64,000 nucleotides of DNA. Source: Blastopirellula sp. Its GTDB lineage: Bacteria; Planctomycetota; Planctomycetia; Pirellulales; Pirellulaceae. Below are positions 672 to 63,047 of the stretch, piece after piece; positions within the stretch are counted from its first letter, which is position 1, and every line of letters begins with the position of its first letter. The DNA is taken from the NCBI GenBank assembly GCA_002701545.1, contig NZVR01000152.1:8790-72789 (forward strand), given 5' to 3'. Position numbers and translations under genes: made by a program. The notes below the pieces were generated by a model. That model did no database searches. It had not been told where the DNA came from and saw only the letters and a program-made list of their open reading frames with translations.

Positions 672-3600
672 ATGCACAGTCGTCTTCATGGGCTATTGGG
701 GGCTTGTCGTTCTGACGAGCTACGTGACGTTCGCCGCCGCTTGCAATTGGAATCGCTTGAGCAACGTCTCGCGTTGACAGCATCCGGAGTGATGGAAGCC
801 GATTCGGCGCTGGTCTCCACGGCGATTGCCGGGGAGGCTGCGGACAACGAAGTAAGCATGCGTGCAGACATTCCAGATCAGGTGTTTGCTCCGTATATGG
901 ATGCCACGTTGTGGCCACCTTTTGATCCAGTGGAATTGGCCAAGGACCAGGGAATCAAGCATGTCACATTTGCTTTTGTCGTGGCAGATCCTGGGACCAG
1001 TGAGCCGAGTTGGGGTGGCTACTACAGTGTGGCGTCGGACTATCGAGGTGACCAATTCGACGCGTTGCGTGAGTTGGGCGGCGAAGTGATGGTGTCATTT
1101 GGTGGTGCCGCCGGAACTCCACTGGCGGCTGCCATCTCGGACGTGGATGACCTGACTCAATCCTATCAGTCGGTGATCGATCAGTATGATCTGACGTGGA
1201 TCGACTTTGATGTCGAGGGTGCCTGGGTTCGAGACGAAGTTTCGATTGACCGTCGTTCGCAGGCGATTCGAAACTTGCAGGATCAGGCGCGCGCCGAGGG
1301 CAGACCCTTGGAAGTCTGGTTCACTTTGCCAGTTTTGCCCAGCGGTCTCACCAGTGACGGCGTTTACGTTGTGGAGTCCGCACTGAGTCATGGCGTTGAT
1401 ATTGGTGGTGTCAACATCATGGCGATGAATTATGGCGATGGACCGGCCCCGAACCCGGAAGGGCAGATGGGTGATTACGCGATTGAAGCGTCATTGAGCC
1501 TGTTTGATCAAATGCAGACAGCTTATGACGCGGCCGGCGTTTCCGTTACGGACGAAGAGATGTGGGGCTTGATTGGCGTGACCCCGATGATTGGCCAGAA
1601 CGACCTCATGTCCGAACGGTTTTATGTGGAAGACGCGCAGAAGTTGTTGGACTTTGCAGAGGACGTTGGGATGGGTTTTCTCTCAGCCTGGTCGATCAAT
1701 CGTGACTCGGCCTGCGATACGCTGGGGGTTCTCGCCTGGGATTGCAGTGGTGTTCCACAAGAGCCCTATGAATTTGCTCAGGCGTTGGGGCAGATCACCA
1801 CCGGGGCCGATCAACCCGTTGACGACACGGACCCGGTTGATGACACCGACCCCGTTGACGACACCGATCCGGTTGACGACACCGATCCGGTTGACGACAC
1901 CGATCCCAACGACTTAGAAGGTCAGGTGTATCTGGTGAATGCCGCCGGTCCCGACATTGTGAACTTTGACGTAACACAAGACCGGTTGGATTTTGGAGAT
2001 ATTTCGGTGCACAACCTGATCATGGGCAAGCTACCAACGGGCGAAGTTGCCATGGTCAACCCATGGGCTTGGACCCCGCAGTATCAAGTGATTCAGGATC
2101 GAACTTACACCGATCTGAGTATTGAAAACTACGGCGTGGTGGCCAACGAACACCTGCGACAGGATCTCGGAGGTGTGGTGTCCTGGGAACAGGGAGTCGG
2201 TCCAAGAGAAGCGGATACAGTTTACGTCCGTTCGCATGAGTACGACGTTCAAGAGCGGATTGATGATTTCGATCCTGCCACGATGAAGCTGAGCTTCCTG
2301 TACTTTGGCACCCGCGAACGGTTGAGTGTCGAAGATACCCCGGAGGGTCTGTTGATCTCGACGCAGCCGACGAATCAGAGTCTCTTGCTGGCGGGGATTT
2401 CCAAGAGCGATTTAGTACCTGCCAACATCGAGTTTCACCATGACCAGATTGTGGAAGATCAACTGGAGGTTCCGTTCGGTTTCACGGAGGACCAACTGAC
2501 ATTGGTCAGTCGTGCCGAATTGCTGACTCCAACCGCACCTGACGGCGAGATCACCGATGGCCATCAGACACGACCAGGCAGCGAGAACCACCACGATCAT
2601 GATGACCACGTGATGGTATCGGTCGCCGACGTGGTCGTAACGGAAGGGTCACCTGGCAGTCTCTCCAGCGGAGTGCTGTCGACGCAGGGGAACCAGATTG
2701 TGGATGCCGCGGGTCAGCCGGTGCGTCTGGCGGGGGTAAGTTGGTTTGGGTTCGAGACCACCAATTTTGTACCGCATGGCCTGTGGTCCCGAGGTTATGT
2801 CGAGATGATGGATCAAATGAAGGCCGAAGGGTTCAATACCATTCGACTGCCTTACAGCGATGAATTGTTTGACACTGGGAGTACGCCGAACGGGATTGAC
2901 TACAGTAAGAATCCGGATCTCGAAGGTTTGAGTGGTCCGGAAATCATGGATCGTATCATTGCCCAGGCCGACGAGATTGGGATGCGTGTGATTCTCGATC
3001 ACCACCGCTCGGCCGCTGGCAATAGCGCCAATGAATCAGGCCTCTGGTATACGCCTGAGTACCCGGAGTCTGTGTGGATTGAAAACTTGACTCACTTGGC
3101 GACCCGCTACGCGGAAAACCCATCGGTGGTCGGTATCGATTTGCATAACGAACCTCATGGCCCTGCGCGATGGGGTGATGATTCGGCGAATGACTGGCGT
3201 TTGGCCGCAGAGCGTGCTGGAAACGCCGTGTTGGCCGCCAATCCCAACCTGTTGATTATTGTCGAAGGTGTTGAGACAACTTCGTCGGGTAGTTACTGGT
3301 GGGGCGGGAATCTGTCCAATGCGGGCGCGGCACCGGTGCGACTGGATGTTGCCGATCGGCTGGTTTACTCCGCTCATGATTATCCTGCCAGCGTCTATCA
3401 GCAGCCGTATTTCAATGATCCGTCTTATCCGGATAACCTCAACGAGATTTGGAATCGCAACTGGGGTTACTTGTTCCGAGACGGTATTGCACCCGTGCTG
3501 CTGGGGGAATTCGGCAGTAAGCTGGAGACCGCCAGTGATCAGCAGTGGTTTGATTCGATGGTCGACTATCTGGATGGTGATCTGGATGGTGATGGGGCCA

Positions 3601-6050
3601 GCGACCTGGAGGCGAATCAGCAGGGCATCAGTTGGACCTATTGGTCGTGGAATCCAAATTCCGGCGACACCGGCGGAATCCTCGAAGATGACTGGGTCTC
3701 GATTCACGACAACAAAGTCGATGCGCTCGAGTCGATTCAGTCTGATTTTGCAGACCTGAACCGGGGTGCGTTGATTACCGTTCGCTTGTCGATGCCGGCA
3801 ATGCATACGGTGACGGTCGGTTATGCGACGGCGGATAAGACGGCAGTGGCTGAGGGCGACTATGATCACGTGACCGGGACGCTCGAGTTTCTCCCGGGCG
3901 AAACCGTAAAGACATTTCGGGTGAACGTCACACCGGATGCGTTGGTGGAGGGGAACGAGCAGTTTGAGGTGAATCTCTTCGATGTTTCCAACGCCATGAT
4001 GGGAGACGGTTCGGCGTTGGTTACGATTGTGGATGACGATACCGATGCCCCCGGTTTGCCGACGATCAGCGTTGCGGATGCTTCGGTGACCGAAGCGGAT
4101 ACAGAAGTTGCTGAAATGACGTTCGAAGTTGTCTTGTCCAAAGCGGCAACAGAAGACGTCACGTTGGATTTCGAAACGGTAGCCGGTTCTGCATTGGCAC
4201 CGGATGACTTTGAGGCGGTCAATGGAACGCTCACGATCCCTGCAGGTGAGACGAGTGGAGAAATCAAAGTGCTGATCTCCGGTGACCTGCTGGAAGAAGG
4301 AGATGAGTCCTTTAAAGTGAATCTCAGCAATGCTGTGAATGCAACATTCGCTGTGAGCACGGCAACAGGAACCATTGTGGACAATGACCGTACGGTCGCC
4401 GCGCCGGGATTTGCTTATCGAACGACGGAGGATTGGGGAAGTGGCTTCAATGGCGAAATCACCATCACCAATCGAGACGAGGAAGCTTGGTCGACTTGGC
4501 GCGTCGAGTTTGAGTGGGAGCATCAAATCAACGAGATTTGGGATGCCGTTCTCGTTGAACAAAACGATGGAAAATTTGTTGTTGATAACGAGTTTTGGAA
4601 TGGAACGGTGGCTCCGGGCAAGAGCGTGACCTTTGGGTTTGGGGGCAGTCCCGGTAATGTGACGACCGTGCCAACCAAGGTCTACGTCAACGGAGTGGCT
4701 GCAGAAGTGGGACAAGCGGCTCCCACCCTCTCGGTCGCAGATGTCAAATTGCCCGAGGGTGACAGCGGAAAAACGTTGGCCAATTTTGCGCTGACGTTAT
4801 CGAAAGCCTTGCCGGACGACGTCACGGTGAATTACAAAACCGAGGCAGGGTCGGCATCGGCGGGAGTCGATTATCAGTCGCAAACCGGTACGATCACGAT
4901 TCCAGCAGGCAGCCTGTCCGCAGTGATTCCCGTGTCAGTCTATGGCGATACAGACGAAGAGGCCGACGAAACCTTCCAAGTGGTTCTGTGGGCACCCACC
5001 GGTGCGACGCTAGATAAGAGTAAGGCCACCGCGCTGATTCAGGACGATGATGCTCCGGCGGGCAATAGTGCTGCGGCATATCGCACCGTGAATGATTGGG
5101 GCTCCGGGTTTACCGGGGAACTGAAGTTGACGAACCAAACGAACGAGGCTTGGGATGATTGGGAAGTCAAATTCGAATGGGGACACAACCTGACCCAATT
5201 CTGGAATGGGACATTGGTCAGCCACGAAGGTAATACCTACGTCGTCAAGAACGTGAGCTGGAATGCTCGCGTCGAACCGGGGGCGAGCGTGACGTTTGGG
5301 TTTAGTGGTAACCCAGGCAATGTGACGACCGAACCTCGGAACATTGTCATCAATGGTCCGGCAGCTGATGACGCGGACGATGCCGATGACCCGGCAGAAG
5401 TTCCTATCGAAATGAACATCAGCAACGCGTCTGCGGTCGAACCGGACGAGGGAACACAAACGATGACCTTTAAAGTCAAGCTGTCGCGTGCAGTTCCTGA
5501 TGGACAGACGGCGTCAGTTGACTACGCGACTGTAGCTGGTACGGCGACAGCAGATGAAGACTTTATTCCTGTGAACGGTACGCTCGAGTTCATGCCGGGA
5601 GAATTGGAGAAAACCATTGACGTTGTCTTCAAGGGGGATACCGTCGTCGAAGCCGATGAAACCTTTGAGGTGGTATTGAGTCAGATCGTGAATGCCAAAT
5701 TCGGCGTCAAGACGGCTGTCGGTACCATTGAAGATAACGATGTGGATTTGACCAGTAGCGTGAAGTGGAGCGTGTCGAGCTCTTGGGCTACTGGGTATGT
5801 TGCATCGATTGTGATCTCCAACAAAGAAACCGAAGCCTGGACAGATTGGGAGCTTGAATTTGATTCAACCCATGAAATCTCGAGTATTTGGGGAGCGGAG
5901 ATCGTGAGTCGTGTGGGAACACGGTACCGCATACGAGCGCTTTCCTGGAATCGGGCACTGGCGCCGGGAGGGACGGTCAGCATTGGTTACCGCGTTGATA
6001 CAGGAGGTCCGCTCGAACCGACGAACTTCCTTCTCAAGCGGACCAAGTAG
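672..6050 (+). CDS. Secreted multidomain glycoside hydrolase: GH18-like + GH5 cellulase-like catalytic modules followed by alternating Calx-beta and CBM2-like modules
   Basis: Uninterrupted 1792-aa ORF with the N-terminal 'LESLEQRLALTA' motif common in planctomycete secreted proteins. GH18-like block: FAFV, SFGGAAG, IDFDVEG (DxDxE). A PVDDTD x5 linker follows. GH5-like block: NEPHG, LLGEFGS, WSWNPNSGDTGG. Four Calx-beta-like modules (GDYD..GTLEF.PGE..K type) alternate with three CBM2-like modules (WGSGF.GE..ITN..W..W.VEFEW). Confidence 0.9.
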   Translation: MHSRLHGLLGACRSDELRDVRRRLQLESLEQRLALTASGVMEADSALVSTAIAGEAADNEVSMRADIPDQVFAPYMDATLWPPFDPVELAKDQGIKHVTFAFVVADPGTSEPSWGGYYSVASDYRGDQFDALRELGGEVMVSFGGAAGTPLAAAISDVDDLTQSYQSVIDQYDLTWIDFDVEGAWVRDEVSIDRRSQAIRNLQDQARAEGRPLEVWFTLPVLPSGLTSDGVYVVESALSHGVDIGGVNIMAMNYGDGPAPNPEGQMGDYAIEASLSLFDQMQTAYDAAGVSVTDEEMWGLIGVTPMIGQNDLMSERFYVEDAQKLLDFAEDVGMGFLSAWSINRDSACDTLGVLAWDCSGVPQEPYEFAQALGQITTGADQPVDDTDPVDDTDPVDDTDPVDDTDPVDDTDPNDLEGQVYLVNAAGPDIVNFDVTQDRLDFGDISVHNLIMGKLPTGEVAMVNPWAWTPQYQVIQDRTYTDLSIENYGVVANEHLRQDLGGVVSWEQGVGPREADTVYVRSHEYDVQERIDDFDPATMKLSFLYFGTRERLSVEDTPEGLLISTQPTNQSLLLAGISKSDLVPANIEFHHDQIVEDQLEVPFGFTEDQLTLVSRAELLTPTAPDGEITDGHQTRPGSENHHDHDDHVMVSVADVVVTEGSPGSLSSGVLSTQGNQIVDAAGQPVRLAGVSWFGFETTNFVPHGLWSRGYVEMMDQMKAEGFNTIRLPYSDELFDTGSTPNGIDYSKNPDLEGLSGPEIMDRIIAQADEIGMRVILDHHRSAAGNSANESGLWYTPEYPESVWIENLTHLATRYAENPSVVGIDLHNEPHGPARWGDDSANDWRLAAERAGNAVLAANPNLLIIVEGVETTSSGSYWWGGNLSNAGAAPVRLDVADRLVYSAHDYPASVYQQPYFNDPSYPDNLNEIWNRNWGYLFRDGIAPVLLGEFGSKLETASDQQWFDSMVDYLDGDLDGDGASDLEANQQGISWTYWSWNPNSGDTGGILEDDWVSIHDNKVDALESIQSDFADLNRGALITVRLSMPAMHTVTVGYATADKTAVAEGDYDHVTGTLEFLPGETVKTFRVNVTPDALVEGNEQFEVNLFDVSNAMMGDGSALVTIVDDDTDAPGLPTISVADASVTEADTEVAEMTFEVVLSKAATEDVTLDFETVAGSALAPDDFEAVNGTLTIPAGETSGEIKVLISGDLLEEGDESFKVNLSNAVNATFAVSTATGTIVDNDRTVAAPGFAYRTTEDWGSGFNGEITITNRDEEAWSTWRVEFEWEHQINEIWDAVLVEQNDGKFVVDNEFWNGTVAPGKSVTFGFGGSPGNVTTVPTKVYVNGVAAEVGQAAPTLSVADVKLPEGDSGKTLANFALTLSKALPDDVTVNYKTEAGSASAGVDYQSQTGTITIPAGSLSAVIPVSVYGDTDEEADETFQVVLWAPTGATLDKSKATALIQDDDAPAGNSAAAYRTVNDWGSGFTGELKLTNQTNEAWDDWEVKFEWGHNLTQFWNGTLVSHEGNTYVVKNVSWNARVEPGASVTFGFSGNPGNVTTEPRNIVINGPAADDADDADDPAEVPIEMNISNASAVEPDEGTQTMTFKVKLSRAVPDGQTASVDYATVAGTATADEDFIPVNGTLEFMPGELEKTIDVVFKGDTVVEADETFEVVLSQIVNAKFGVKTAVGTIEDNDVDLTSSVKWSVSSSWATGYVASIVISNKETEAWTDWELEFDSTHEISSIWGAEIVSRVGTRYRIRALSWNRALAPGGTVSIGYRVDTGGPLEPTNFLLKRTK
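1815..1904 (+). repeat. In-frame 18-bp tandem repeat x5 encoding the PVDDTD linker
   Basis: cccgttgacgacacggac-like units repeat head to tail and translate to PVDDTDPVDDTDPVDDTDPVDDTDPVDDTD, between the GH18-like module and the rest of the protein. Confidence 0.9.
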
Positions 6051-6213: not shown

Positions 6214-9200
6214 TTACTCGGTGTCATCCTCTGACGTGTTTGCCTGATCCTGACTCAGTTCTTCCAGCAGTTCGACCAATTCCGTATCACCACGGTTTTT
6301 CGCAAGTTGGATAGCGGAACGTCGATTGTCGATCCTGGCCCGCGGATCAAGTCCTGCTGCGATGAGGACACGGGCAACCTGTAAACGTCTTTCAGAGACC
6401 GCAAATTGAGCGAAGTGGTTGTCACCAAATTGCTTGGCCGTGCTGCGGATCTCTGCTAGTTCTTGCAGTGGGTTGCGTCCGGCTCTTGTGATTTGTGTCG
6501 CCGTTGCACCGGCATCCAGCAGGAGTTGCGTAAGTTCCGGACCACCCCATTTGGCAGCCTCGTGGATCGGTCGATAACCACTGAAATTGCTGCCATTGGG
6601 ATCGGACCCCAATGCCAGAAGCAGCTTTGCCGTTTCCACATGATTTCCGAAGCAAGCAGCTTTCAGGGCATCCATACCGTAAATGCCTGTTTGTTTTTTG
6701 AGATCGACACCCGAGTCGGCAAGCAACTGTAAGGCGTCCGTGGAGCCGTGAAGTGCGGCTGCCAAGACCGGCGTCGCGAATTGGTTGCCGTAGCCGGTAG
6801 AACCTGCGTCCGTGTTGGCGATTTCGTTAAGCAGCTCTGCATCGTTGATTTCGTCGATCACAGACTGGAGCGTTTCCGCGTCATTTTGCATGGCAGCCTG
6901 AGCCAGTTTTTGATGCGTTCTTTGTGTCGCCAGATTGGCTGTGCGGCGCAAGGATTGCGTCCAGGGTTCGGCAGCGTTTGCGTCCAAAACAGGATATAGG
7001 TCGTACCATCGTTTCTGCGCTGTCAGGAGCTGGGCATGTAAAAGCGACGGGACCACCAAGTCGGGTGTTGCGGCCATTTCCGCTTCGGCGATATCGCGTC
7101 CCAGAGGCACAACCACCATATTCTTGAAGGTCAGTTGTGAGTTGGTTCCCATGGCTTGAATCGCGAACTCACCGGACATGTCACGGCCGGGCTGGCTATC
7201 GAAGATGTTGTTCAACAGCAAGTCACCATAGCTGAAGCGAAGGTGATTGCCCCGCATCTCTAAAGTTATCTTGCTGCCCTCAGGCAGGTCTTGCATTTTC
7301 TGCAGGAGGTCGAGGCTCGATTCGGTTTGACTGCGGGCCAGTGCTACTGGTTTGTGGTCGATTCCGATCAAGACGGCTTGCCCACGATCGGCGATGACCA
7401 GCGGACGAGGATAGTTGTCGTTGATGAATTTGCCGTGGAAGTTGCCGACATTCAGGTTTTGCGATCCGACCAGGTCAGCCTGGTATCCTTGTCTCAGATA
7501 AGGATGCAGATAGTTTGCCTGATAGACATTCGAAGTGTCAGGTGCAAAGTGTGTGCGTCCATCAAAACCGCTGTTGCCAAACAGTTTTGCGATCTCGACT
7601 TGAATTCGGAAGTCGGCAAAATGGCCGCCTATCCAAGTGACGTACTGATTGTTGGTGGCGGCCCACTTGCGTTCTTCCAGTAGTGAAACACCCGAGTCTT
7701 TGGCTTCCCACCAATCAGCCAATCCATCCCATTCGCTTATCAACTCGGGGCTGGTCAAATCCACCGGATCGGATTCATGCGACTGGTCCGTGTATGCCTG
7801 ACTGCGAATCTCCAGCAGTTGAGGCAAGCGGGCCATGTGTTGCAGCATGGCGAGGGCGAATTCAGGCGTCTGGGGGTATTCGTAATGCTGCTGAATGAGT
7901 TTGATCTGGTGATATCTGGTTGCCGCTGCTGACGTGGTGGCATCGGTAGATAGCTTCATGGCTTGACTGAGCACGCGGGGAGTGATTTGTCTGGCCACGA
8001 GCGCGAGTGCTAGATCGATCGGTTGATCGGAGGCAACTTCGGAATCGTAAAATTGACCGGCTTGCGCGAGGTGTTCGGTCAGGGCCGGTAAGTTGTCGTT
8101 GGGTTGGATAAAGTCGACCTGCCGTGCCGCGGAGTGGCGTTCAAACCAATTCTGGAAGGCTTGCAACGCGGGATGAGTTGGTTGGTATGCGGGGCTGGGT
8201 TTCGCCGATAGCAGGGATTGAAAATAAAGGAAGAACAAATTCCCATCTTCCGCGCCAATGTCTGTCAGATCGAATTGCTCCCAATTGGGTAAATGGTTTT
8301 GGGCTAAGGGGGCGGTGGCACGCAGTTGCACTATGCCAACGTTTGGCTGACCAGCGGAGATGTCGCTGCGGGCCACACGTAGCGTCAGTGTTTTTTGTCC
8401 GTCCCACGGCCCACTTTCGACAGGCTCCCAGTCCGCCAGCAGGCCACCTGACGAAACTTGGATTGGCAAAGGAGCAGCCAACGCGTGACCGTCATCAGCG
8501 CGCAGCACGAGTGGACGCTGTTGTTGATCGGTAGCGATCAGGAACAATCCCAGTGGGTCAAAAATAAAATCGTCCATCCGCAGGTCAGCAGGAAGCTGCG
8601 GCAGCAAGATCGGTCGGCCGTCGATCAGGCTGTGCATGGCCAGCACGCCGGCGGGATCCAAAATAGCCAACCGAGTTCCTTCGGGGCTGACCAGCGCTCG
8701 TCGGATACCAGGGATGGTAACTGCGTGCACGGTATCCAGGCTTTCATCCTCGGCACTGGTCAGGCAGAGTTGACCGTCTTCCTCGATGGTCAGAAACTGT
8801 CGTTGCATTGGCAGGAATTGGATGAGCTGAACGTCAGAGTCGTTTGCAACGGTGCGTACGGGCTGTGCCGGGTCAGCAGCGTCGTACAGTTGATAGCCGT
8901 CTTCCGCTGTCACGAGAAATACGGTCTGGCCGTCTGATGACAAGCAGGCGTGCGTGATCTCAGCGGTGTCTGGTAGTTCGATTTCGGCGACGATCGACGG
9001 AGTATCTTGGTGGCTGATGAGCACAGCCCGGTTGCCTGCGGACAGCAGCACGCGGTTGTCGACCAGGGAGACTTGATCGAGGGCTGCGGGCTGCGGGAAA
9101 TTGGGAGTATCGGCAAATAATTCGCTCACGTTCGTGACGTTTCCGTTGTCACGTTGCACCAGCAAGACGCGTCCGTCTTGCTCCAGGACGCCAACGTGTT

Positions 9201-11256
9201 TTTCGTTGGCAGTCAAGGCAGCAATCTGGCTTTGGGCGTTGAATTGCACGGCCGGAGGATTGTCCGTTGTTGCTGTCCCGGGGTGGGGCACCACATGGAC
9301 TTGGTGATTGCCATTCACGTAAGCGACTGCCTGAATGGACGGCAGTTCAAAGCACTGTGTGACGGAATGCTGGTCGGGCTCGGTGCGATATGGGTGAAAC
9401 AGATGCTTCTGACTGAGGTAGCTGATTGCCGACCGCAAGAGATCGTTGTCTGTGGTGTCTCGTTGATAGGCTGTTTGCAGGACATTCAGGCACTCCGCCA
9501 GATTGTCAGCGTCAAATGCCTCCTGGGCAGCCAAGATGCTTTCTCTGCGGTAGCTGAGCGTCAATTGCTTCTTGGATTCCACTGCCTCAGCAGTCGCTCG
9601 GTTGGCAAGTTTTTCATTCTTGCGAGCTTGTGCCATGGCCAGCATGGCGAGAATGGAGGCCACGATTGCGACGGCAGCTACAGCGCCTGTAATCCGAGAT
9701 TGACGTTTGAATTTTCTGGCCGAAGCGGTTTGTTCTTGAGCCAGTCGCTCTTGTGACTCGGCCAGCTCTTGGGCTTGGCGTAATTCGCGTTGTCGGTTTT
9801 CCTCTGCCACGCGAGCCGCTTCGTGCTGGTCTCGATCGCTTGCTTCGAGAAACTCAACGGCGACCGGGAAGTTCGTGTCGTAGCGAGCGGCCCAAGCTTC
9901 GTTGGGGTTGGCCGTTTCGAGCCAGGACAAAGCAATTTGCAGGTCGGGATCGCGGTACAAGCCAGCGTGATTTTGTTTCCACAGGATCGCTGTTTCCGAC
10001 AGACGCTTGTAGATGCGTACTGACTGGGATTCCTCTTCGACCCAGGTCTTCAGTCGTTTCCAGACACGCATCAAGCTTTCATGGGAAATGTCGATAACCA
10101 TTCCATCGTCCAGAGGCGTGTTGCTGAACGGCATCAGAAAGGTGCGGCCCGGGGCGCGATACGCCTCGATAATGGTGTTCAACAGCTCGGTAGAGGCTCC
10201 CGTGATTTGGCGCAGCAAGTCCAATCGCGTGGGGCGGCGAATGCCACGATTGTCAACGCCTTTTTCGGTTAACGCGCGAAACACCCGTTCGGTCGCGTTG
10301 AGTACGGTCGTTGAGTCGCCCACCGATTCTTGGATTTCGAGCAGGATTTCGTCGGCGTGATTTGACAGCGCATCGGTCATGCCTCCGACCGCCTCGTAGT
10401 CTTCCAGGTCCATTTGAGGTGCTGTGTCGGCAGCTCTCTGGTGGCAATGATCCCAGCTGCGCATCAGCGAATGTTGCAAGACAGGCAGTTGGTCTGCATG
10501 CTCGCCCACATCGTTGAGCAGCCGTTGGATCAAGCGACGACTCACTTCCCCGCCGGCGACTTTGACAGGACCTTCGATTGCCTGTTGCACTTGATCCCGT
10601 GTCAGTTTCGGCACCAGGTATTCACCGTGATTGATCGCTTCGGCTAATCCGGTAAAGCGAGCGCAATCACCCAGGAAGTCGGAACGCATGGTCAAGACGA
10701 CATAGATCGGGACGTCATCTTGTTGCACCGCATGTATCAACCAGCGGATGAAATCTGGTGCCTGCTGCTGGCCCTTGTTGCCAGCTTCGTGAAAACGAAA
10801 GATTTCCTCAAACTGATCAACCACAATGAGCATGTTGCTGCCAGTCGGGAGTTCCGATTGCTTGACCGCTTCCACCAGACCGTTGGTCGAGCGATTGATG
10901 GTGGCCATGACTTGATGAACCGTGTCTTCATCATCTTCGTCGTAGATGTCTGCATCGAGTAAGGACTGGGCCAGATTGGAAAGCGGGTCGCCGCCGGGTT
11001 GCATCACGGCGATGTGCCAATCCGACCCGGCGTCCAGCATCATGCCACCCTGTAGTTGGCTCAGCAGGCCACACCGGACCAAGGACGATTTGCCACTTCC
11101 CGAGGAACCCACGACTGCGAGAAAACGATGTTCTCTCAGTAATTTCATCAGCTCGGAGATCTGCTCTTCACGACCAAAGAACAGGTAATCTTCCTCGCTT
11201 TGGAAGGGGCGCAAACCGGGAAAGGGGTTGAATGCGTTCATCGGTTTCGATTTCAC
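6214..11256 (-). CDS. nSTAND-type P-loop NTPase with one TM helix, beta-propeller-like repeats, a DUF1080/LamG-like module and C-terminal ankyrin repeats
   Basis: 1680-aa ORF. The N-terminus 'PFPGLRPFQSEEDYLFFGREEQISEL..FLAVVGSSGSGKSSLVRCGLL' (Walker A) plus 'MLIVVDQFEEIF' (Walker B) and 'DQLPVLQHSLMRSW' is the signature of the FGRE-type novel STAND NTPases. Downstream come a coiled-coil stretch and the hydrophobic helix ITGAVAAVAIVASILAMLAMA. Repeats such as 'SSDGQTVFLV' and 'SPEGTRLAIL' follow, then a DUF1080-like block (FADFRIQVE...LRFSYGD...FKNMVVVPL) and ankyrin repeats (GSTDALQLLADSGVDL, GNHVETAKLLLALGSDPN, RPIHEAAKWGGPELTQLLLDAGA). Confidence 0.85.
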   Translation of the reverse strand: MKSKPMNAFNPFPGLRPFQSEEDYLFFGREEQISELMKLLREHRFLAVVGSSGSGKSSLVRCGLLSQLQGGMMLDAGSDWHIAVMQPGGDPLSNLAQSLLDADIYDEDDEDTVHQVMATINRSTNGLVEAVKQSELPTGSNMLIVVDQFEEIFRFHEAGNKGQQQAPDFIRWLIHAVQQDDVPIYVVLTMRSDFLGDCARFTGLAEAINHGEYLVPKLTRDQVQQAIEGPVKVAGGEVSRRLIQRLLNDVGEHADQLPVLQHSLMRSWDHCHQRAADTAPQMDLEDYEAVGGMTDALSNHADEILLEIQESVGDSTTVLNATERVFRALTEKGVDNRGIRRPTRLDLLRQITGASTELLNTIIEAYRAPGRTFLMPFSNTPLDDGMVIDISHESLMRVWKRLKTWVEEESQSVRIYKRLSETAILWKQNHAGLYRDPDLQIALSWLETANPNEAWAARYDTNFPVAVEFLEASDRDQHEAARVAEENRQRELRQAQELAESQERLAQEQTASARKFKRQSRITGAVAAVAIVASILAMLAMAQARKNEKLANRATAEAVESKKQLTLSYRRESILAAQEAFDADNLAECLNVLQTAYQRDTTDNDLLRSAISYLSQKHLFHPYRTEPDQHSVTQCFELPSIQAVAYVNGNHQVHVVPHPGTATTDNPPAVQFNAQSQIAALTANEKHVGVLEQDGRVLLVQRDNGNVTNVSELFADTPNFPQPAALDQVSLVDNRVLLSAGNRAVLISHQDTPSIVAEIELPDTAEITHACLSSDGQTVFLVTAEDGYQLYDAADPAQPVRTVANDSDVQLIQFLPMQRQFLTIEEDGQLCLTSAEDESLDTVHAVTIPGIRRALVSPEGTRLAILDPAGVLAMHSLIDGRPILLPQLPADLRMDDFIFDPLGLFLIATDQQQRPLVLRADDGHALAAPLPIQVSSGGLLADWEPVESGPWDGQKTLTLRVARSDISAGQPNVGIVQLRATAPLAQNHLPNWEQFDLTDIGAEDGNLFFLYFQSLLSAKPSPAYQPTHPALQAFQNWFERHSAARQVDFIQPNDNLPALTEHLAQAGQFYDSEVASDQPIDLALALVARQITPRVLSQAMKLSTDATTSAAATRYHQIKLIQQHYEYPQTPEFALAMLQHMARLPQLLEIRSQAYTDQSHESDPVDLTSPELISEWDGLADWWEAKDSGVSLLEERKWAATNNQYVTWIGGHFADFRIQVEIAKLFGNSGFDGRTHFAPDTSNVYQANYLHPYLRQGYQADLVGSQNLNVGNFHGKFINDNYPRPLVIADRGQAVLIGIDHKPVALARSQTESSLDLLQKMQDLPEGSKITLEMRGNHLRFSYGDLLLNNIFDSQPGRDMSGEFAIQAMGTNSQLTFKNMVVVPLGRDIAEAEMAATPDLVVPSLLHAQLLTAQKRWYDLYPVLDANAAEPWTQSLRRTANLATQRTHQKLAQAAMQNDAETLQSVIDEINDAELLNEIANTDAGSTGYGNQFATPVLAAALHGSTDALQLLADSGVDLKKQTGIYGMDALKAACFGNHVETAKLLLALGSDPNGSNFSGYRPIHEAAKWGGPELTQLLLDAGATATQITRAGRNPLQELAEIRSTAKQFGDNHFAQFAVSERRLQVARVLIAAGLDPRARIDNRRSAIQLAKNRGDTELVELLEELSQDQANTSEDDTE

Positions 11257-11264
11257 AGAAGGGA

Positions 11265-13610
11265 CTATTGAATGTTTTCTACAAAGCTCAGGAGTTCTTT
11301 CGTTTCGGAGAAGCCGTCTGCGGGCTCTTGGACAATTGCCGCATGATGGCTTTTGAAACGTTCCTTGCGTTTGTCGAAGGGGGGCGCGATGTAGACCGCA
11401 ACTTGAGGAATGGGGGTGGTCCGACCATAGCCCGCAGCCTTGAGTGTGTCTCGTAGCTTAATGTCGACCCAGCTTTTGCGAACACCGCCATAGAAAATGA
11501 TCACCGCATCGCACTCGCATAATGTCTGTAAGTGCAACTGGCTGACTTCGTCTTGAGGGCAGTCGAAGTCGGGTAGAGAGACTTCCAGCCCCTGTTGGAA
11601 CAAGAAGTTTTCGAGCGATTCTGTTGCGTCTTCATCCACACTGTCGCAGATCAGGTAGACCATGCGGATGTTCTCGTCTTTGGTGGGCTTGTCCGAATCC
11701 TCAGGTGTTGCGTTGCGCAAGGATGTGAGGTGCTGAGAGACTGCCTCTTTGAGGAGGCTCAAGTGGCCTTCGACGAGCTCGCAATTGGCGTGCGCGGCGT
11801 CTTGCGTTCGTAACTGTTCCAGGAACGTGTTTTGTCTGGCATCAGCGATCTCGCCGGCTTCACACCAGACGAACTGCTGAGCCGGATGGGATGCGAGCCA
11901 CTCGCGGATTTCCGCCGCTTGTAATTCCATCACGCTGTGTTGCGCATTTTCCGGAACGATGCCGTAGCTGCTGCCCGCCAGCTGGACGATCAATTCCGCA
12001 TCCTTCAAATAGCCTGTAACCTCGGCGACCAACGCGCCGTGCTCCAGAGTCAAAGGCTTGTCTGGTACGACTCGATAGCCCTGTTCTGTTAACTCGCGAC
12101 AGATGACCTCGTATTCATTACGCACATCCGAAGTGGTTACGGCGACGTACGCGACCGGATGAGATGCGGTTTCCACCACGGTTGCATCCGGATCGCTGGT
12201 GAGCGTTTGGTTGAGTTCGTAGGCGACGTCGTAGATTTTTTCGTAGTATCGCCGCTTTAGGTCTTCGCCGAACGATTCTTCGTACTCCAGCACGCGGCCC
12301 GAATCGTCCTGTTCGAAAAAGTTGTGGTCGTTGACCTGAGTCAAAACGTCCGTTCCGATTCCTTGCAGCCGTTTCTCGTCGACAGGCGTCTTGACCACCT
12401 TGATCAGGCGTGAGTCAGCGTTGGCTCCCCCTTCAATGAACGTCTGCACCTCTTGGGCGCACGGTGTCGAGTTAGCGAATGGAGGAGAGACAACCGTCAG
12501 CAATGACTTGGCCTTGGGCAGTTCCGAGAGTAAGGCCGGCTCAAGGTTTTCGTCGTGCTCTTTGCGAAGTGGGCGGTAGACGTTGACTTCCCGGCCGGCG
12601 AGCTGTTGGAGCCGAACTTTCAGATTGCGATGAAATCTCGAAATCCAACCTTCGTCGTCGCTGGACAGAGACTGATCGTCCAGCGCCGAATAGCTAATGT
12701 AAACGTCGCTTTCCGCCGGTGAGCCCTGCGAATAGTCCGCAGTGGACGGCGCGCCACTACAACCCTCCTTGATCGCGGTGAGCATTTCTTGGGGGCTCTG
12801 AAAACGCTCGGCTTTGTCTTTCGCCAGAGCTCGGAGTACCACATGGGCCAGCGAGTCACTGACGTGTGGATTCCATTCGCTCCGCGGAGGTGGATCCTGA
12901 TTGATAATCTTGTTGATGACTTCGCCGATGGCCTGACCCTCGAAAGGTAACTTGCCGTTCAGCATCTGATAGAGAATGACACCGACACTGAACAAGTCAC
13001 TCAGGTGATCGACCTCGGAACCAAGCGCCTGCTCGGGGCTCATGTAGTTGGGGGTTCCGAGCAGACTGCCTGTCATGGTCAAGTTGTGTTCCATCGTGGC
13101 GTCGTTGACGTTCTGTTGCACGGCCAGACGTTTCGCCAAGCCAAAATCCAGAATCTTGGCAATGCCGCGCTGGTTGATGGAAATGTTCCCCGGTTTGAGA
13201 TCGCGATGCACAATGTTTTGCTCGTGAGCGACCGTTAAGCCCGCTAAAACCTGGCAGATGATATCGACCGTTTCCTCGATGGGCAGGGGATTTGGGGCTT
13301 GCAGTTTCGCTTCCAACGTTTCCCCATCGATATACTCCATGCACAGATAAGGCTGCTGGGTCTCCGTCTCACCCACTTCGTAAATGGTACATACGTTGGG
13401 GTGGTTCAGCGCCGAAGCCGATTGGGCCTCTTGCAGAAAACGTTTGCGCAGATGCTCGTCCTGGCAGAGATTCTGGGGAAGCACTTTGATTGCAACCGCG
13501 CGGCCTAGCTTGGAATCATGGGCGAGGTAGACTTCGCCCATGGCACCGGCGCCGAGCATCTCGGTTACCGTAAAATGAGCTATCTTTTGGTCGGTCATCT
13601 TCAGGGTCAC
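11265..13610 (-). CDS. Ser/Thr protein kinase fused to three TIR-like (flavodoxin-fold) modules
   Basis: 781-aa ORF. The kinase motifs are complete: LGAGAMGEV, VAIK, HRDLKPGN, DFGLAK, GTPNYMSPE. Three modules with TIR-like starts follow: 'SDVYISYSALDD..WISRFHRNL', 'HPVAYVAVTTSDVRNEYE' and 'IRMVYLICDSVDEDATESLENFL'. The stop lies 9 bp upstream of the NTPase start, so an operon is likely. Confidence 0.85.
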   Translation of the reverse strand: MTLKMTDQKIAHFTVTEMLGAGAMGEVYLAHDSKLGRAVAIKVLPQNLCQDEHLRKRFLQEAQSASALNHPNVCTIYEVGETETQQPYLCMEYIDGETLEAKLQAPNPLPIEETVDIICQVLAGLTVAHEQNIVHRDLKPGNISINQRGIAKILDFGLAKRLAVQQNVNDATMEHNLTMTGSLLGTPNYMSPEQALGSEVDHLSDLFSVGVILYQMLNGKLPFEGQAIGEVINKIINQDPPPRSEWNPHVSDSLAHVVLRALAKDKAERFQSPQEMLTAIKEGCSGAPSTADYSQGSPAESDVYISYSALDDQSLSSDDEGWISRFHRNLKVRLQQLAGREVNVYRPLRKEHDENLEPALLSELPKAKSLLTVVSPPFANSTPCAQEVQTFIEGGANADSRLIKVVKTPVDEKRLQGIGTDVLTQVNDHNFFEQDDSGRVLEYEESFGEDLKRRYYEKIYDVAYELNQTLTSDPDATVVETASHPVAYVAVTTSDVRNEYEVICRELTEQGYRVVPDKPLTLEHGALVAEVTGYLKDAELIVQLAGSSYGIVPENAQHSVMELQAAEIREWLASHPAQQFVWCEAGEIADARQNTFLEQLRTQDAAHANCELVEGHLSLLKEAVSQHLTSLRNATPEDSDKPTKDENIRMVYLICDSVDEDATESLENFLFQQGLEVSLPDFDCPQDEVSQLHLQTLCECDAVIIFYGGVRKSWVDIKLRDTLKAAGYGRTTPIPQVAVYIAPPFDKRKERFKSHHAAIVQEPADGFSETKELLSFVENIQ

Positions 13611-13658
13611 TTCGTACTACGAACAAATGCGCCTGATCGGAAACGGACGTTGCCGGTC

Positions 13659-13684
13659 TCAGGTGGGTATTTCAGGTGGGTATT
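13659..13684. repeat. Perfect 13-bp tandem direct repeat (tcaggtgggtatt x2) about 50-75 bp upstream of the kinase start
   Basis: Read directly: tcaggtgggtatt at 13659-13671 and again at 13672-13684, in the leader/promoter region of the kinase-NTPase operon. Confidence 0.7.
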
Positions 13685-13883
13685 TCACACGTGGACTCCA
13701 GCGGCATGTGGGCAGCGAGTGGTGAATCGCTGCTGATGGCTGGAGGCAATCTGCGCCGGAGCCAGGACGTGTGATGTGAAACGGCCTGACAATCGCTGCA
13801 AGGATTGCCAGAGCCGTTGGTCATCACGACTTCGTTAGCTCGTCAACGCGGTGGCGCAGGTTTTGGGCTATCCCATGATTCTC

Positions 13884-14879
13884 CTATTCCGCGGCTTTCA
13901 AAACAATGACCGGTTCGTCTTCGTCCACCGGCACGCCATTGAGCGTCCGCGAGATGATTGTGTGACGAAAGACGCCGGGTTCCGAGAAGTCAAATTGACA
14001 GAATTCATGGATTTTCCCAGCTGGGCCTTCGCCACTGCGTTCCCACAGTAACTTGCCATTGTTGGCGGCTACGAGTTCACCACGTATCATGACGCCGCTT
14101 GAGGTCTGGTACTGTTTGACGACTCGCCCTGTCTTTGCATTGTAACTATAGACTGCGCGGACTTCGAAAGCTTGATCGGCACTGGTTCCGGCTTGCTGCA
14201 TGGTCCAGTTGTGCGTGATGACACTGCCCGTCGCGGAGCGTTTACCCGAGCACTGAACTTTATAGACCGCCTTGTCCGCTCCATAAGCGTCGCTGCCAGG
14301 GTTCTCGAAATCGCCCTGATACGTTTTTAGAAGAGGCTCCAGGACATCGATTTTTTCGGGAGCAACATTCTCGCCGGTCGCCGTCTTTTTGGTCCAGATA
14401 TGGGTTTCTTGCTCCAGGTCCCAGGTGGCAAACAAACGATTGCCTTTGATTTGAGCAATGACTGAAAAATCGAACGGGCGCCAGTCGTGAGCTTCCTCTT
14501 TGGGGAGAATTCGCCGGTTTTCAACGAATTCCAGGGTCAGCAGGTCACGTGTCGTTACCTCCGCAATAAACTTGGCTTCCCACAATGACTCGTTCGATTT
14601 GTCCGGGGTGGTCATCTGGAACGTGTGCTCAAATTGCCCGGCTTTTTCTCCAGCACGTACCGTCCACGTAATGGTCGTCGGCTTACCGTCCACGTTGATG
14701 TGTTTTCGGGTCCAGGTTCCAACCAATTGCTCAAGTTGCTGTTCTGGAGTCAGTTCGGGAGCGGCGGTCGCGTCGTCTGCCAAGCTCACCGTAGCGGTTA
14801 GCAAGATGGTCAGCGCGAAGGTGGAGAGATACGAGGGTAAGGTCCATGGGCATTGCTGCGGCATCTGGGGTGCTTTCAA
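13884..14879 (-). CDS. Hypothetical secreted protein (two-lobed, unknown function)
   Basis: 331-aa ORF with a signal-like N-terminus (LSTFALTILLTATVSLADD). I recognise no diagnostic motif. Confidence 0.65.
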   Translation of the reverse strand: MKAPQMPQQCPWTLPSYLSTFALTILLTATVSLADDATAAPELTPEQQLEQLVGTWTRKHINVDGKPTTITWTVRAGEKAGQFEHTFQMTTPDKSNESLWEAKFIAEVTTRDLLTLEFVENRRILPKEEAHDWRPFDFSVIAQIKGNRLFATWDLEQETHIWTKKTATGENVAPEKIDVLEPLLKTYQGDFENPGSDAYGADKAVYKVQCSGKRSATGSVITHNWTMQQAGTSADQAFEVRAVYSYNAKTGRVVKQYQTSSGVMIRGELVAANNGKLLWERSGEGPAGKIHEFCQFDFSEPGVFRHTIISRTLNGVPVDEDEPVIVLKAAE

Positions 14880-16293: not shown

Positions 16294-16609
16294 GCAGGAT
16301 GCGGCGCAGGCAGCCTTGGAAAGCCGCACCCCGTATGGCACTGGGTGAAGGACCAGCGGTTCATTGCGTCGAGACGTTGCGGTAGCGAAACAATGCGTGG
16401 TTGGTGAATCGTTTACTGGAGAGTCAGCCGGCTTGGGACCGCGATTGCGTCTGCGATTGGCAGGCTTCTACCTGTTTTTTCAAAAGGATTTGTGTTGGTG
16501 GCAACCCAGCGTCGACTCACGTTGGCGGCGTGATACAATAGAAAGAGACGAGCCACCTGCCACCGCGCCCCCCCTCAATACCAGCGCGTTTTGCGTTGTC
16601 ACTTGCCGA

Positions 16610-19045: not shown

Positions 19046-19106
19046 TTGAGTGTTTTCCCCAAAGTCGGGCGTGCCGATGAAGGTAGTCTTTGGCGATACG
19101 GGGTAA

Positions 19107-19146
19107 CCGAGGAATCAAGTGATGGCCCGAGGAATCAAGTGATGGC
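19107..19146 (+). repeat. Perfect 20-bp tandem duplication spanning the RBS and start codon of the DUF1552 gene
   Basis: ccgaggaatcaagtgatggc occurs at 19107-19126 and identically at 19127-19146. Each copy carries gaggaa (SD-like) and ATG. The first ATG (19122) runs into TGA after 6 codons. The second (19142) opens the 426-aa frame. Confidence 0.9.
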
Positions 19147-20422
19147 ATATGTGAACTTGCAACGACACCTGAACCGTCGGACCGTCTTGCGTGGTGCGGG
19201 AGTTGCCATGGCCATGCCTTGGCTGTCCGCGATGCGTCCCGCCTTTGCAGCTGCAGAGACGCGACCGCCGAAACGATTTGTCGCCATCACACTCGGATTG
19301 GGGCTGCACGCCGAGAACTTGTTTCCCGAACAGCCCGGGCGTGATTACCAACCTGCCCGCTATCTGGAACCACTGCAGGACATGCGGCAACATTACAGTG
19401 TCATTTCGGGGACCTCGCATCCGGGGGTTTCGGGAGGTCACCGGGCAGAGGCCAGCCTGTTAAGCGCTGCGCCGATGAGCGCGGCTGCGGCCGGTCGCAA
19501 TTCCATTTCCTTAGACCAGTTGCTGGCCAAGCACCTGGGGCATCACACACGTTTTCCCTCCTTGGTGTTGAGTTTGTCCGGGAGCAACAGTCCATCCTAC
19601 ACCAGCAGTGGCTCGATGATTCCGGCCGAGAACTCACCGGCCCGGCTGTTCACTCGATTATTTATCAACGACTCCCAACGCGAACAGAAGCAACAGATCG
19701 CGCGCGCTCGACAGGGCCGCAGCATCATGGATTTGGTGGCGGATGACGTTCGGGCTCTGCAACGAAAACTGGGTAGCGGAGATCGGCAGCGGTTGGAAGC
19801 GTATTTCAACAGTGTGCGCGAGTTGGAAAAGCGACTTGCGGAAAATGAAGCTTGGGCTGGTCGCCCCAAGCCGACCGTCGATGTCGAGAAACCGGTCGAT
19901 ATCGGAAACCCGAATGATTTCATCGGGCGCCAACGTTTGATGAGCGACATGGTTCGCTTGGCTTTGGCCACGGATTCCACTCGTTTCGTCACATTGCATC
20001 TTGGCGGCGGTGGTGGAGTGGTGCGAGTCAAAGGAGTTGACGAAGGTTATCACTCGCTCAGCCACCATGGACGCGATGAAGAAAAACTAGCGCAACTCGC
20101 CTTGGTGGAATCTGCGATCATTCACGCCTGGGGAGACTTCTTGCGAAGTTTGCAGGATACCTCTGATCAGGGCACGCACCTGCTGGATCACACCTCGGTG
20201 TTGTTAACCAGCAACCTGGGAAATGCGTCGAGTCACGATAATCGCAACATGCCGGTGTTGTTTGCCGGTGGCGGATTTCGTCACGGTCAACATCTGGCAT
20301 TCGATCGCAAAAAGAATTATCCGCTCCCCAATCTCTATCTTTCGGTGTTGCAGCAAACCGGGTTGGAAGTGGAGCGATTTGCGACCAGCACGGGAACGAT
20401 GGCTGGCATGGAACCGGCGTGA
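19142..20422 (+). CDS. DUF1552 domain protein (Tat-signal), partner of the upstream DUF1592-family gene
   Basis: '[18 protein letters not shown]' is a twin-arginine-type signal, and '[14 protein letters not shown]' is a typical DUF1552 motif. Its position directly after the DUF1592-family gene is the usual planctomycete pairing. Confidence 0.85.
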
Positions 20423-23188: not shown

Positions 23189-23412
23189 CTTGAAACCACG
23201 CATCGATGGGCGTTGGATTGGGGGTGGCAACAGAGGGAAGTGCGTGGTTGTGCCCGCGAGTTGACGCGCACGTGATGGGTGCCGCTGTCGCTCGTCGTAT
23301 GGCGAACCGTGGAGTGGTTCATCATCAATCTGGATGACCATGCCCTCTTGATAGGGCGCGATGGCTTTGGTGAAAATGTTTGCTGAACACGAGGGCGTGC
23401 GATGTTGACGGG

Positions 23413-23438: not shown

Positions 23439-23464
23439 TTTGGAAAACGAAATAAGGTCGAGTC

Positions 23465-61372: not shown

Positions 61373-61393
61373 GGTTGCAACGATCAAGCCGTG

Positions 61394-63034: not shown

Positions 63035-63047
63035 CGTGACCTCCTTC

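Follow-up and report, generated by a model that had tools for sequence, protein, structure and literature searches.

Introduction

The nSTAND1 clade of NTPases was defined in predicted counter-invader systems that have TIR domains or kinases as effectors (Kaur, Burroughs, Iyer & Aravind 2021, eLife; PMC8195603). Next, bioRxiv preprints of 2026 describe DUF4062, renamed NIR, as a TIR-like NADase that needs a single Glu (KpSwz E97, PsAvs2 E108, Vulcan E98), with E-to-Q mutants being dead (10.64898/2026.05.01.722283; 10.64898/2026.09.04.749371). Lastly, in planctomycete kinases a cytoplasmic domain is commonly joined by one transmembrane helix to WD40/TPR arrays in the periplasm (Odelgard et al. 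2024, PMC11032199). Here we analyse a pair of genes from the planctomycete Blastopirellula sp. in which elements of all three are found. The pair lies in a 64,000-nucleotide stretch of contig NZVR01000152.1 (positions 8,790 to 72,789), hereafter the window. Gene A encodes a Ser/Thr kinase domain followed by three modules (M1, M2 and M3). Gene B, directly downstream, encodes a large protein with an nSTAND1 NTPase domain, one predicted transmembrane helix and a repeat-rich C-terminal region.

An original prediction, made from the letters of the DNA alone, had described gene A as a kinase fused to three TIR-like modules and gene B as a novel STAND NTPase, and had proposed that the two form a sensor-effector pair. 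The reading that we favour, with moderate confidence, is that gene B is a transmembrane NLR-like sensor and gene A an output protein, with kinase and TIR activities, that is activated by proximity.

Conservation and distribution of the pair

A search with the triple module alone (M1 to M3) retrieves hundreds of full-length relatives. At the level of clusters of environmental bacterial proteins, defined at 50% identity, the exhaustive profile search returned 6,088 at E<=1e-3, 4,017 at 1e-10 and 1,666 at 1e-30. The genome scan, limited to one genome per species, gave 75 loci, 67 of them testable, with at least 600 nt of sequence downstream. An nSTAND1 open reading frame (ORF) is found within 1 kb downstream in 65 of these 67. 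The same holds for all metagenome neighbourhoods inspected, where the nSTAND1 gene comes next in five out of five relatives with a kinase or cyclase head and in three out of three headless ones, that is, those made of the triple module alone. Three headless forms with clean N-termini each stand directly before an nSTAND1-transmembrane-WD40 gene. Stop and start codons of the metagenome pairs often overlap, and the flanking genes vary.

Furthermore, one relative (P0220, 972 aa) is a natural M1-M2-M3-nSTAND1 fusion in one gene, so that the triple array stands where a STAND protein has its N-terminal effector. In the window, a separate upstream gene takes this place, and gene B has C-terminal repeats. 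The proposed link between sensor and effector therefore stands, on the conserved pairing and the fusion. One correction concerns the kinase, which is an optional head (see below).

The locus of the fusion (L089, 4780-10919, contig JX_farmland_Scaff07944745) has its own features. P0220 contains neither a transmembrane helix nor repeats, and it is preceded, after a gap of 3 nt, by a 1072-aa protein with a faint NACHT domain and an FGE-sulfatase domain. Around these two genes there are PIN/RHH toxin-antitoxin genes and IS110/rve transposases. It is possible that this locus represents a variant of the system that is cytoplasmic and has three parts.

The genome loci belong to Planctomycetota and Verrucomicrobiota, with a few in Acidobacteriota and Limnocylindrales. 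The closest relatives of the window pair are found in marine Pirellulaceae/Rhodopirellula metagenome-assembled genomes (MAGs). A relative at 84% identity (L082) is still syntenic with the window, synteny is gone at 70% identity, and no conserved core region, of the kind expected around a housekeeping signalling gene, surrounds the pair.

At least seven genomes carry two divergent copies. The two-copy assemblies are again marine Pirellulaceae/Rhodopirellula MAGs, namely the one with L010 and L059 (NZVD01000004.1) and six others. One copy resembles that of the window and has a partner of ~1680 aa of the Ank type. The other is ~37% identical and has a ~2380-aa partner of the WD40 type. In one MAG, both copies of the pair are on the same 20-kb contig.

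The three TIR-like modules of gene A

Residue numbers of gene A refer to the 777-aa reading from the ATG codon, unless stated. M1 passes the TIR_2 threshold of Pfam (Table 1), with the match at residues 300-405 (304-409 in the 781-aa GTG reading), and the M1 of a relative (L080) reaches 41.1 bits. In the AlphaFold2 (AF2) model, M1 forms a parallel beta sheet made of five strands with the beta-alpha x5 topology of the TIR fold, and it contains a conserved extension of a beta-hairpin and a long helix. Its family profile aligns to the structures of the plant TIRs RPV1, RUN1 and RPS4. In this alignment E383 (codon 12450-12452, checked) coincides with the residue mutated in RUN1 E100A. From the sequence, E383 is predicted to be the Glu at the catalytic position, and M1 is a candidate NADase-type TIR.

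A Foldseek search with the three-module model returned the TIRs of RUN1, RPV1, SNC1, RPP1 and SARM1, with a probability of 1.0 and a TM(target) of 0.44-0.60, together with generic multi-Rossmann proteins. As these matches come without query ranges, their attribution to M1 is presumptive and none of them is assigned to M2 or M3. The Foldseek library probably predates the KpSwz structure.

Two side observations concern the resemblance of M1 to plant proteins. Its best matches among solved structures are plant TIRs, not bacterial ones. Residues ~424-447 hold the motif F-[FY]-E-x-D-x-x-[ST]-G-R-[VIL]-x-E-[FY]-x-E-x-F-G-E, which is collinear with the hallmark FYxVDPSxVRxQxGSFGEAF of plant TNL TIRs (second HMMER domain against RPV1 and RUN1).

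M2 is DUF4062-like. The window copy scores 20.5 bits against this family (PF13271), below the gathering threshold of 24.7, at residues 484-559 (488-563 in the GTG reading). Among aligned family members, DUF4062 matches M2 in 10 of 11, the best with an E-value of 3e-9. The M2 family profile also has a weak match (E=0.024) to the TIR/DUF4062 chain of KpSwz in the PDB. The catalytic Glu of KpSwz was located by extending the alignment into the deposited E97A chain, where it is the last position of S-F-T-E-K-[E to A]. M2 reads S555-V-M-E-L-Q560 in this place, and so departs from S-x-T-E-x-E at the catalytic Glu, whose position is occupied by Q560 (codon 11919-11921). The Gln of the window is the same substitution that has been used experimentally to abolish NIR activity.

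This replacement is general in the family. Among 73 genome loci, 67 have Gln and 6 have Leu, and ~144 of the 150 best representatives have Gln too. The exceptions are Leu in one cyclase-headed clade and Glu in four headless proteins. With Gln where the catalytic Glu of DUF4062 sits, M2 is predicted to be DUF4062-like in fold but catalytically dead.

As for M3, hhalign relates it to M2 with a probability of 28% (E=6e-4). Its Pfam matches are all sub-threshold: of 11 members, 5 match TIR_2 (best E=0.025) and 1 matches DUF4062. The window copy has no significant Pfam match. The M3 family profile gave nothing meaningful against PDB sequences. M3 is probably TIR-like. Similarity between M1 and M2, or between M1 and M3, is undetectable by hhalign, which indicates that the modules are not recent duplicates.

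Taken against the original description, M1 is TIR-like on both its TIR_2 match and its Glu, M2 is better described as DUF4062-like, and M3 fits weakly. A generic fold, such as that of response regulators or flavodoxins, fails to account for the TIR_2 match of M1 and the DUF4062 matches of M2. Only M1 keeps a catalytic Glu.

The kinase as an exchangeable head

All catalytic motifs of the kinase are intact (K38, E57, H131-R-D133-x-K135-x-x-N138, D151-F-G and P188-E189), as had been claimed for it, and these residues are invariant across an alignment of 46 homologues. Gene A has no hydrophobic 19-mer at a Kyte-Doolittle value of 1.6 or more, and its product is predicted to be soluble and cytoplasmic. 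The AF2 model, made with the 46-homologue alignment, has a mean predicted local distance difference test (pLDDT) of 84. It consists of the kinase followed by three separate five-stranded beta/alpha modules, with disordered linkers between them.

Most relatives lack the kinase. Counts of heads, and of the M1 Glu in representatives, refer to the best 150 only. Of these, 99 are headless, with a length of ~490-530 aa, and 20 are kinase-headed. Six have a class III cyclase instead, one has both enzymes, one has a C-terminal kinase and one is the nSTAND1 fusion. In Verrucomicrobia loci, Pfam cyclase heads pass the gathering score in L015 only, with three others just below it. The triple array is the core of these proteins, and the kinase is an exchangeable, optional head, which can be a kinase, a cyclase, both or none.

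Some individual proteins show further arrangements. In P0125 (1043 aa) and at 6563-9491 of L083, a kinase and a class III cyclase both precede the triple module. In P0176 the kinase is at the C-terminus, so that the position of the head is flexible. Another protein, P0126, was tried as a headless form and rejected as an assembly artefact, having a kinase and cyclase ORF just upstream on a contig with Ns.

The fate of the catalytic Glu of M1 follows the head. It is kept in 98 of 99 headless proteins, compared with 9 of 20 kinase-headed ones (Fisher p=1.8e-9). In genome loci of the Planctomycetes-Verrucomicrobia-Chlamydiae (PVC) group, it is kept in 50 of 73. From the contrast between headless and kinase-headed forms, we infer that TIR catalysis was the ancestral output and that gain of the kinase relaxed the constraint on this residue. 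The window protein retains both the kinase motifs and the M1 Glu.

NTPase, predicted transmembrane helix and ectodomain of gene B

The nSTAND signature that had been noticed at the start of gene B is borne out by a match of E=4e-94, covering positions 1-375 of the 379 in the nSTAND1 model. Walker A (GSSGSGKS) and Walker B (LIVVDQ) are intact, giving a complete P-loop and the hhhhD[QE] pattern.

The NTPase module is followed, after ~90 residues, by a strongly hydrophobic helix of 21 residues, at 522-542. This element is conserved. Of the 55 partners of sufficient length for this, 48 have exactly one hydrophobic segment, at 78-92 residues after nSTAND1 in the partners listed. The helix is present in partners of headless, cyclase-headed and kinase-headed forms alike. 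Of 50 distinct contexts, 42 show an excess of flanking Lys and Arg N-terminal to the helix, and 2 show it C-terminal to the helix. Since the NTPase needs cytoplasmic nucleotide, we predict an N-in/C-out topology, with the repeat sensor in the periplasm. The role of gene B as a sensor, part of the original proposal, is kept, with a correction to its location. The sensor lies beyond the conserved helix and is predicted to be extracytoplasmic, unlike the cytoplasmic sensors of Avs type.

The domains of the ectodomain were approached with profiles built from orthologues, cut out of the loci of relatives. The orthologue profile of the propeller region matches RACK1, G-beta-like and Sec12 chains in the PDB (best E=2e-4), and the window region itself has weak Pfam propeller matches. 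PF06439 is found at the DUF1080-like position in 2 of 5 orthologues (best 5.7e-5), with no match in the window copy. The profile of this region against the PDB gave nothing meaningful. In another partner (L054), a DUF1080 domain is found at 1.4e-32. Among the domains first assigned to gene B, the NTPase and the ankyrin repeats are therefore solid, and the propeller and DUF1080-like module hold weakly, through orthologue profiles.

Partners are highly variable in length, from ~900 to >3400 aa, and contain WD40, TPR, Ank or DUF1080 repeats or domains. In most relatives, the ectodomain consists of several WD40 propellers. Rates are asymmetric along the protein. Within the NTPase, the first 300 residues share 71-86% identity with relatives (61-86% for the first 500), compared with 10-46% in the ectodomain. 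When compared to the syntenic relative, dN is 0.066 in the NTPase and 0.266 in the propeller region, which is the fastest-evolving part. The slowest parts of gene A are M3 (dN 0.055) and M1 (dN 0.077). As dS is saturated (1.3 to >5, or undefined), only contrasts in dN are usable.

Gene boundaries and genomic surroundings

Both ORFs are confirmed on the minus strand, from the ORF list and the translations, with the coordinates shown in Table 1.

Table 1. Features of the gene pair, in window positions. Residues are those of the protein encoded by the gene concerned.
Feature	Residues	Position	Strand	Evidence
Gene A, predicted soluble kinase + triple TIR-like protein		11265..13598	minus	ORF, translation, database protein P0001
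Hanks-type Ser/Thr kinase domain (gene A)	~10-269	12792..13571	minus	Pkinase E=9e-52
M1, TIR_2 domain (gene A)	293-472	12183..12722	minus	TIR_2 31.2 bits vs gathering threshold 28
M2, DUF4062/NIR-like module (gene A)	478-634	11697..12167	minus	DUF4062 profile
M3, third five-stranded beta/alpha module (gene A)	641-777	11268..11678	minus	AF2 beta-alpha x5
Gene B, predicted membrane nSTAND1 NTPase		6214..11256	minus	ORF, translation, database protein P0121, junction sequence
nSTAND1 NTPase domain (gene B)	11-430	9967..11226	minus	PF20703 316.7 bits vs gathering threshold 27.1
Single predicted transmembrane helix ITGAVAAVAIVASILAMLAMA, after RKFKRQSR (gene B)		9631..9693	minus	Hydropathy
Divergent WD40-like beta-propeller region (gene B)	~575-1010	8227..9534	minus	Orthologue profile
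DUF1080 / 3-keto-disaccharide-hydrolase-like (lectin-fold) module (gene B)	~1215-1400	7057..7614	minus	PF06439 in orthologues
C-terminal ankyrin repeats (gene B)	1499-1599	6460..6762	minus	Ank_2 E=8e-19, Ank_4 E=2e-14
13-bp perfect tandem repeat, 2.2 copies, 100% identity		13659..13687		Tandem Repeats Finder (TRF)

Gene A has 777 aa from ATG 13598, with the stop TAG at 11265-11267. The ORF list starts it at GTG 13610, which adds 4 residues. At 777 aa, the length of the database protein P0001 makes ATG 13598 the likely start, and P0001 has 100% identity to residues 293-777, the region queried. Gene B has 1680 aa from GTG 11256, or 1675 aa from ATG 11241, and its 3' end is at 6214. This ATG is the start used in relatives (MNAFNPFPGL), and P0121 is identical from it onwards. 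ATG 11241 is the more likely start. The two genes are on the same strand, as had been stated, but the gap of 9 bp originally given between them needs correction. The stop of gene A is 8 nt from GTG 11256, and ATG 11241 is another 15 nt downstream. By the start of the relatives at MNAFNPFPGL, the spacer is probably 23 nt.

The neighbours of the pair in the window are genes with PSD/PSCyt, DUF1552, GH5/CBM2 and GH123 domains. On the plus strand, convergent with gene B, a glycoside hydrolase of secreted type is encoded at 672-6050. This protein of 1792 aa contains a GH5 cellulase, four Calx-beta, three CBM_2 and a CBM49 domain, and its position is kept in the 84% identical relative. Directly upstream of gene A, on the minus strand, there is a 331-aa ORF (13884-14879) with no Pfam match. 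It was considered as a conserved third gene and rejected, with a homologue found only in L082. Next, a PSCyt/PSD gene (DUF1592/1588/1585/1587/1595) of a kind typical of planctomycetes, followed by a DUF1552 (HXXSHH) gene, occupies 16364-20422 on the plus strand. These two genes flank the system in L082 too. Lastly, GC skew is positive (0.03-0.17) over the first 60 kb of the window and ~0 at 60001-64000, where GC content goes up to 0.60.

The tandem repeat that had been reported upstream of gene A is real, extends to 13687, and lies within the 285-nt leader. It is not conserved in the leaders of two relatives, L082 (84% identical) and L005 (70% identical), and is probably incidental. The leader itself (13599-13883, minus strand) has a minimum free energy of -99.9 kcal/mol and is more stable than shuffled controls (z=-3.83). 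It matches no Rfam family, and in the 84% identical relative its sequence is unconserved. Other perfect or near-perfect tandem duplications occur at 19107-19146 (20 bp x2), 23412-23443 (13 bp x2.5) and 3568-3593 (12 bp x2.2), and the giant GH5 gene contains one of 18 bp x4.9 (1818-1906). This genome seems to be rich in short slippage duplications. An operator or riboswitch at the leader repeat was rejected, given that the repeat is unconserved, that no Rfam match and no sigma-70-like promoter were found, and that similar duplications are present elsewhere.

Proposed mechanism and alternative explanations

In the reading that we favour, gene B would hold its nSTAND1 domain in the cytoplasm, cross the membrane once and expose a large, variable repeat ectodomain to the periplasm. 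Binding of a ligand to this ectodomain would license NTP-dependent oligomerisation of nSTAND1 at the inner face of the membrane. The oligomer would then recruit or cluster gene A protein through the triple array. Clustering would activate the TIR NADase of M1 and, by trans-autophosphorylation, the Hanks kinase head. In other lineages, the head would be a class III cyclase, active as a dimer. M2 and M3 may serve as a non-catalytic scaffold, or as nucleotide-binding pseudo-enzymes with a regulatory part. The ancestral output would be TIR chemistry on NAD+, to which kinase-headed lineages would add phospho-signalling, and sometimes substitute it.

Hanks kinases, class III cyclases and TIR NADases are all switched on by induced proximity. 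Kinases trans-autophosphorylate, the active sites of cyclases form at the dimer interface, and TIRs build composite sites in oligomers. STAND NTPases oligomerise upon ligand binding.

As for the biological role, we lean slightly towards a system that watches the envelope or periplasm for damage or non-self and gives a response of conflict type. Points for a role in conflict are the TIR, NIR and STAND building blocks, the variable sensor, the paralogues, the patchy distribution and the setting of L089. The predicted extracytoplasmic sensor and the heads made of signalling enzymes either weigh against such a role or set the pair apart from known systems. The same is true of the mostly housekeeping or metabolic neighbourhoods, of the triple module and partner having no PADLOC model that covers them, and of the viral, phage and plasmid collections searched, which contain no copies.

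Several points count against the transmembrane sensor reading. It depends on a contact between the A and B proteins that we infer, and the predicted template modelling score (pTM) of 0.40-0.42 makes the AF2 model uninformative on domain packing. The topology of gene B comes from hydropathy and charge bias alone, and the TIR affinity of M3 is sub-threshold. With the M1 Glu lost from 23 of 73 loci in PVC genomes, NADase activity is not universal. The saturated dS precludes a test for positive selection on the ectodomain. Neighbouring genes were looked at in ~13 genomic contexts, window included. They have mostly metabolic or housekeeping functions and do not form defence islands, apart from two cases, L001 with an AbiE pair nearby and L089 with its toxin-antitoxin and transposase genes. 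Lastly, no relatives were found among IMG/VR viral contigs, INPHARED phages or PLSDB plasmids, and carriage by mobile elements was rejected on this result.

The first alternative is a classical abortive-infection anti-phage NLR of Avs or bNACHT type, which would sense a phage protein and, by depleting NAD+ through its TIR and NIR domains, kill or arrest the cell, with the kinase as an accessory regulator. TIR, DUF4062/NIR and STAND recur as defence modules, and NIR domains serve as effectors of Avs and are enriched in the vicinity of defence genes (10.64898/2026.09.04.749371). The enrichment reported for NIR is 20.0% versus 3.9%. The strong constraint on the TIR Glu in headless forms (98 of 99), the fast-evolving sensor and the two paralogous copies in several genomes would also fit, as would the NACHT/FGE-sulfatase gene, PIN toxin-antitoxin genes and transposases that adjoin L089, and the AbiE pair near L001. 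Even so, we consider this explanation unlikely. A sensor predicted to be periplasmic is not where phage capsid, portal and terminase are sensed, and the Glu is missing from M2 in nearly all homologues and from M1 in 23 of 73 loci. PADLOC models match nothing beyond the generic kinase domain. Neighbourhoods are mostly housekeeping, and the phage, plasmid and viral collections searched hold no copies.

We likewise see little probability in ordinary, non-conflict signalling about the envelope or environment in PVC bacteria and Acidobacteriota, where STAND would be the switch, the kinase or cyclase the output and the TIR-like modules docking scaffolds. The heads are indeed classic, exchangeable signalling enzymes, and the whole parallels the kinase-transmembrane-WD40/TPR receptors of planctomycetes (PMC11032199). 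Contexts are metabolic, with genes for polysaccharide degradation near the pair in the window, and the ectodomain includes a DUF1080 module of lectin-like type. Selection is purifying overall (dN << dS everywhere), and many kinase-headed members have lost the Glu. Against this, 99 of the 150 best representatives have no head at all, yet 98 of them keep the TIR Glu. The distribution is patchy, with synteny lost at 70% identity, and where TIR/DUF4062 chemistry has been characterised, it is the cleavage of NAD+ in immunity (2026 preprints).

Lastly, that the genes are merely adjacent, with no functional link, and that the TIR-like calls are noise from flavodoxin-like folds, is very improbable and effectively refuted: M3 lacks a significant family match, the window M2 stays below the Pfam threshold and Foldseek also returns generic multi-Rossmann proteins, but adjacency holds in 65 of 67 loci across phyla and is joined by a natural fusion, M1 passes TIR_2 and the model matches plant and SARM1 TIR structures with a probability of 1.0, and M2 matches DUF4062 in 10 of 11 relatives (best 3e-9).

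Comparison with known systems

The combination of domains had not been recognised as a named system in the original prediction, and it remains without one, as no PADLOC model covers it and the literature searched does not describe it. This applies to the TIR-DUF4062(Gln)-TIR-like array, to its obligatory pairing with a membrane nSTAND1 and to the swapping of heads, within an incomplete coverage of the literature that makes an earlier description possible.

The counter-invader systems in which nSTAND1 was defined share the NTPase clade (316.7 bits for gene B) and C-terminal sensors of repeat or lectin type. In their description, TIR domains and Ser/Thr kinases are among the effectors, planctomycetes and other complex bacteria are enriched, and the setting of nSTAND1's first description is the one in which the fused relative at L089 stands, beside a NACHT/FGE-sulfatase (FGS) gene (PMC8195603). 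Here, in contrast, the effector is a separate upstream gene and not an N-terminal fusion or a partner linked by an effector-associated domain (EAD). It has a fixed triple core of the TIR superfamily, and a conserved transmembrane helix stands between NTPase and sensor. The passage that defines nSTAND1 makes no mention of a fixed triple array, a separate effector gene or a transmembrane helix (PMC8195603).

Next, the NIR systems (Swarozyc, Avs2-NIR, Vulcan, Vesta and Evangelion) have the domain family that M2 resembles, and in them NIR occurs as the N-terminal effector of STAND/NLR-like proteins. The differences are that M2 has Gln, in some cases Leu, at the position of the catalytic Glu, that it sits between a canonical TIR and a third TIR-like module, and that the partner STAND is membrane-anchored by prediction. 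Kinases, tandem arrays, transmembrane segments and Planctomycetota are not mentioned in the 2026 NIR preprints.

Avs and other bacterial NLR-like proteins share the logic of an effector, a STAND NTPase and a repeat sensor, activated by oligomerisation. In the window these parts are divided between two genes, with a sensor of predicted extracytoplasmic location and an NTPase of the nSTAND1 clade. The Avs models of PADLOC match neither gene, and effector, STAND and sensor are not joined in a single polypeptide. PADLOC matches to gene B come through the ankyrin repeats and the P-loop only, and the triple module has none.

As for other defence systems, the likeness to PD-T4-6 and MADS Mad6 is in the kinase domain, which scores strongly against their PADLOC models (E down to 9e-99). 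These matches span the kinase domain only (e.g. profile positions 16-290 of 510), the remaining parts of those proteins and systems are absent here, and MADS partner genes were not seen around the locus. For Thoeris, no ThsA-like gene is present, and one headless relative (P0156) has a marginal ThsB match (E=0.0076).

Receptor Ser/Thr kinases of planctomycetes come from the same phylum and are also single-pass proteins, with periplasmic WD40 domains and a cytoplasmic Hanks output (PMC11032199). They differ in that the kinase here is on a separate, predicted soluble protein, that the membrane protein contains a STAND domain and that TIR-superfamily domains are interposed.

If the transmembrane sensor reading is confirmed, the sensing space of bacterial machinery of the innate-immune type would reach the exterior of the cell. 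To our knowledge, the bacterial NLR-like systems that have been characterised to date detect components of phages within the cell. The array would be a natural case of TIR pseudo-enzymes that work with an active TIR. The history of the heads would be a case in which evolution handed the output over from NAD+ chemistry to signalling by kinases or cyclases, which bears on the origin of TIR-plus-kinase signalling of the eukaryotic kind. Furthermore, many unannotated "hypothetical" or "TIR domain-containing" proteins of Planctomycetota, Verrucomicrobiota and Acidobacteriota gain a context and a testable partner.

A broader idea, which we put forward tentatively and hold to be possible but doubtful, is that these pairs form a widespread transmembrane pattern-recognition pathway. 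It would lead from a hypervariable WD40/lectin ectodomain through a membrane STAND to a TIR-array adaptor with kinase, as a functional counterpart of TLR-MyD88-IRAK logic, with the two degenerate modules serving to template or gate the active TIR. On this idea, it would be the first NLR-like system shown to detect threats beyond the cytoplasm, for instance the adsorption or ejection of phages, predatory bacteria or damage to the envelope. The comparison with the Toll-like receptor, MyD88 and IRAK is by analogy only, and no homology of ectodomain or adaptor is claimed. Both arrangements have a repeat ectodomain, one transmembrane helix, a TIR assembly and a Ser/Thr kinase activated by proximity, as proposed here for gene A. 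The bacterial pair differs in its STAND switch and in having its TIR on the soluble partner, where it is probably catalytic.

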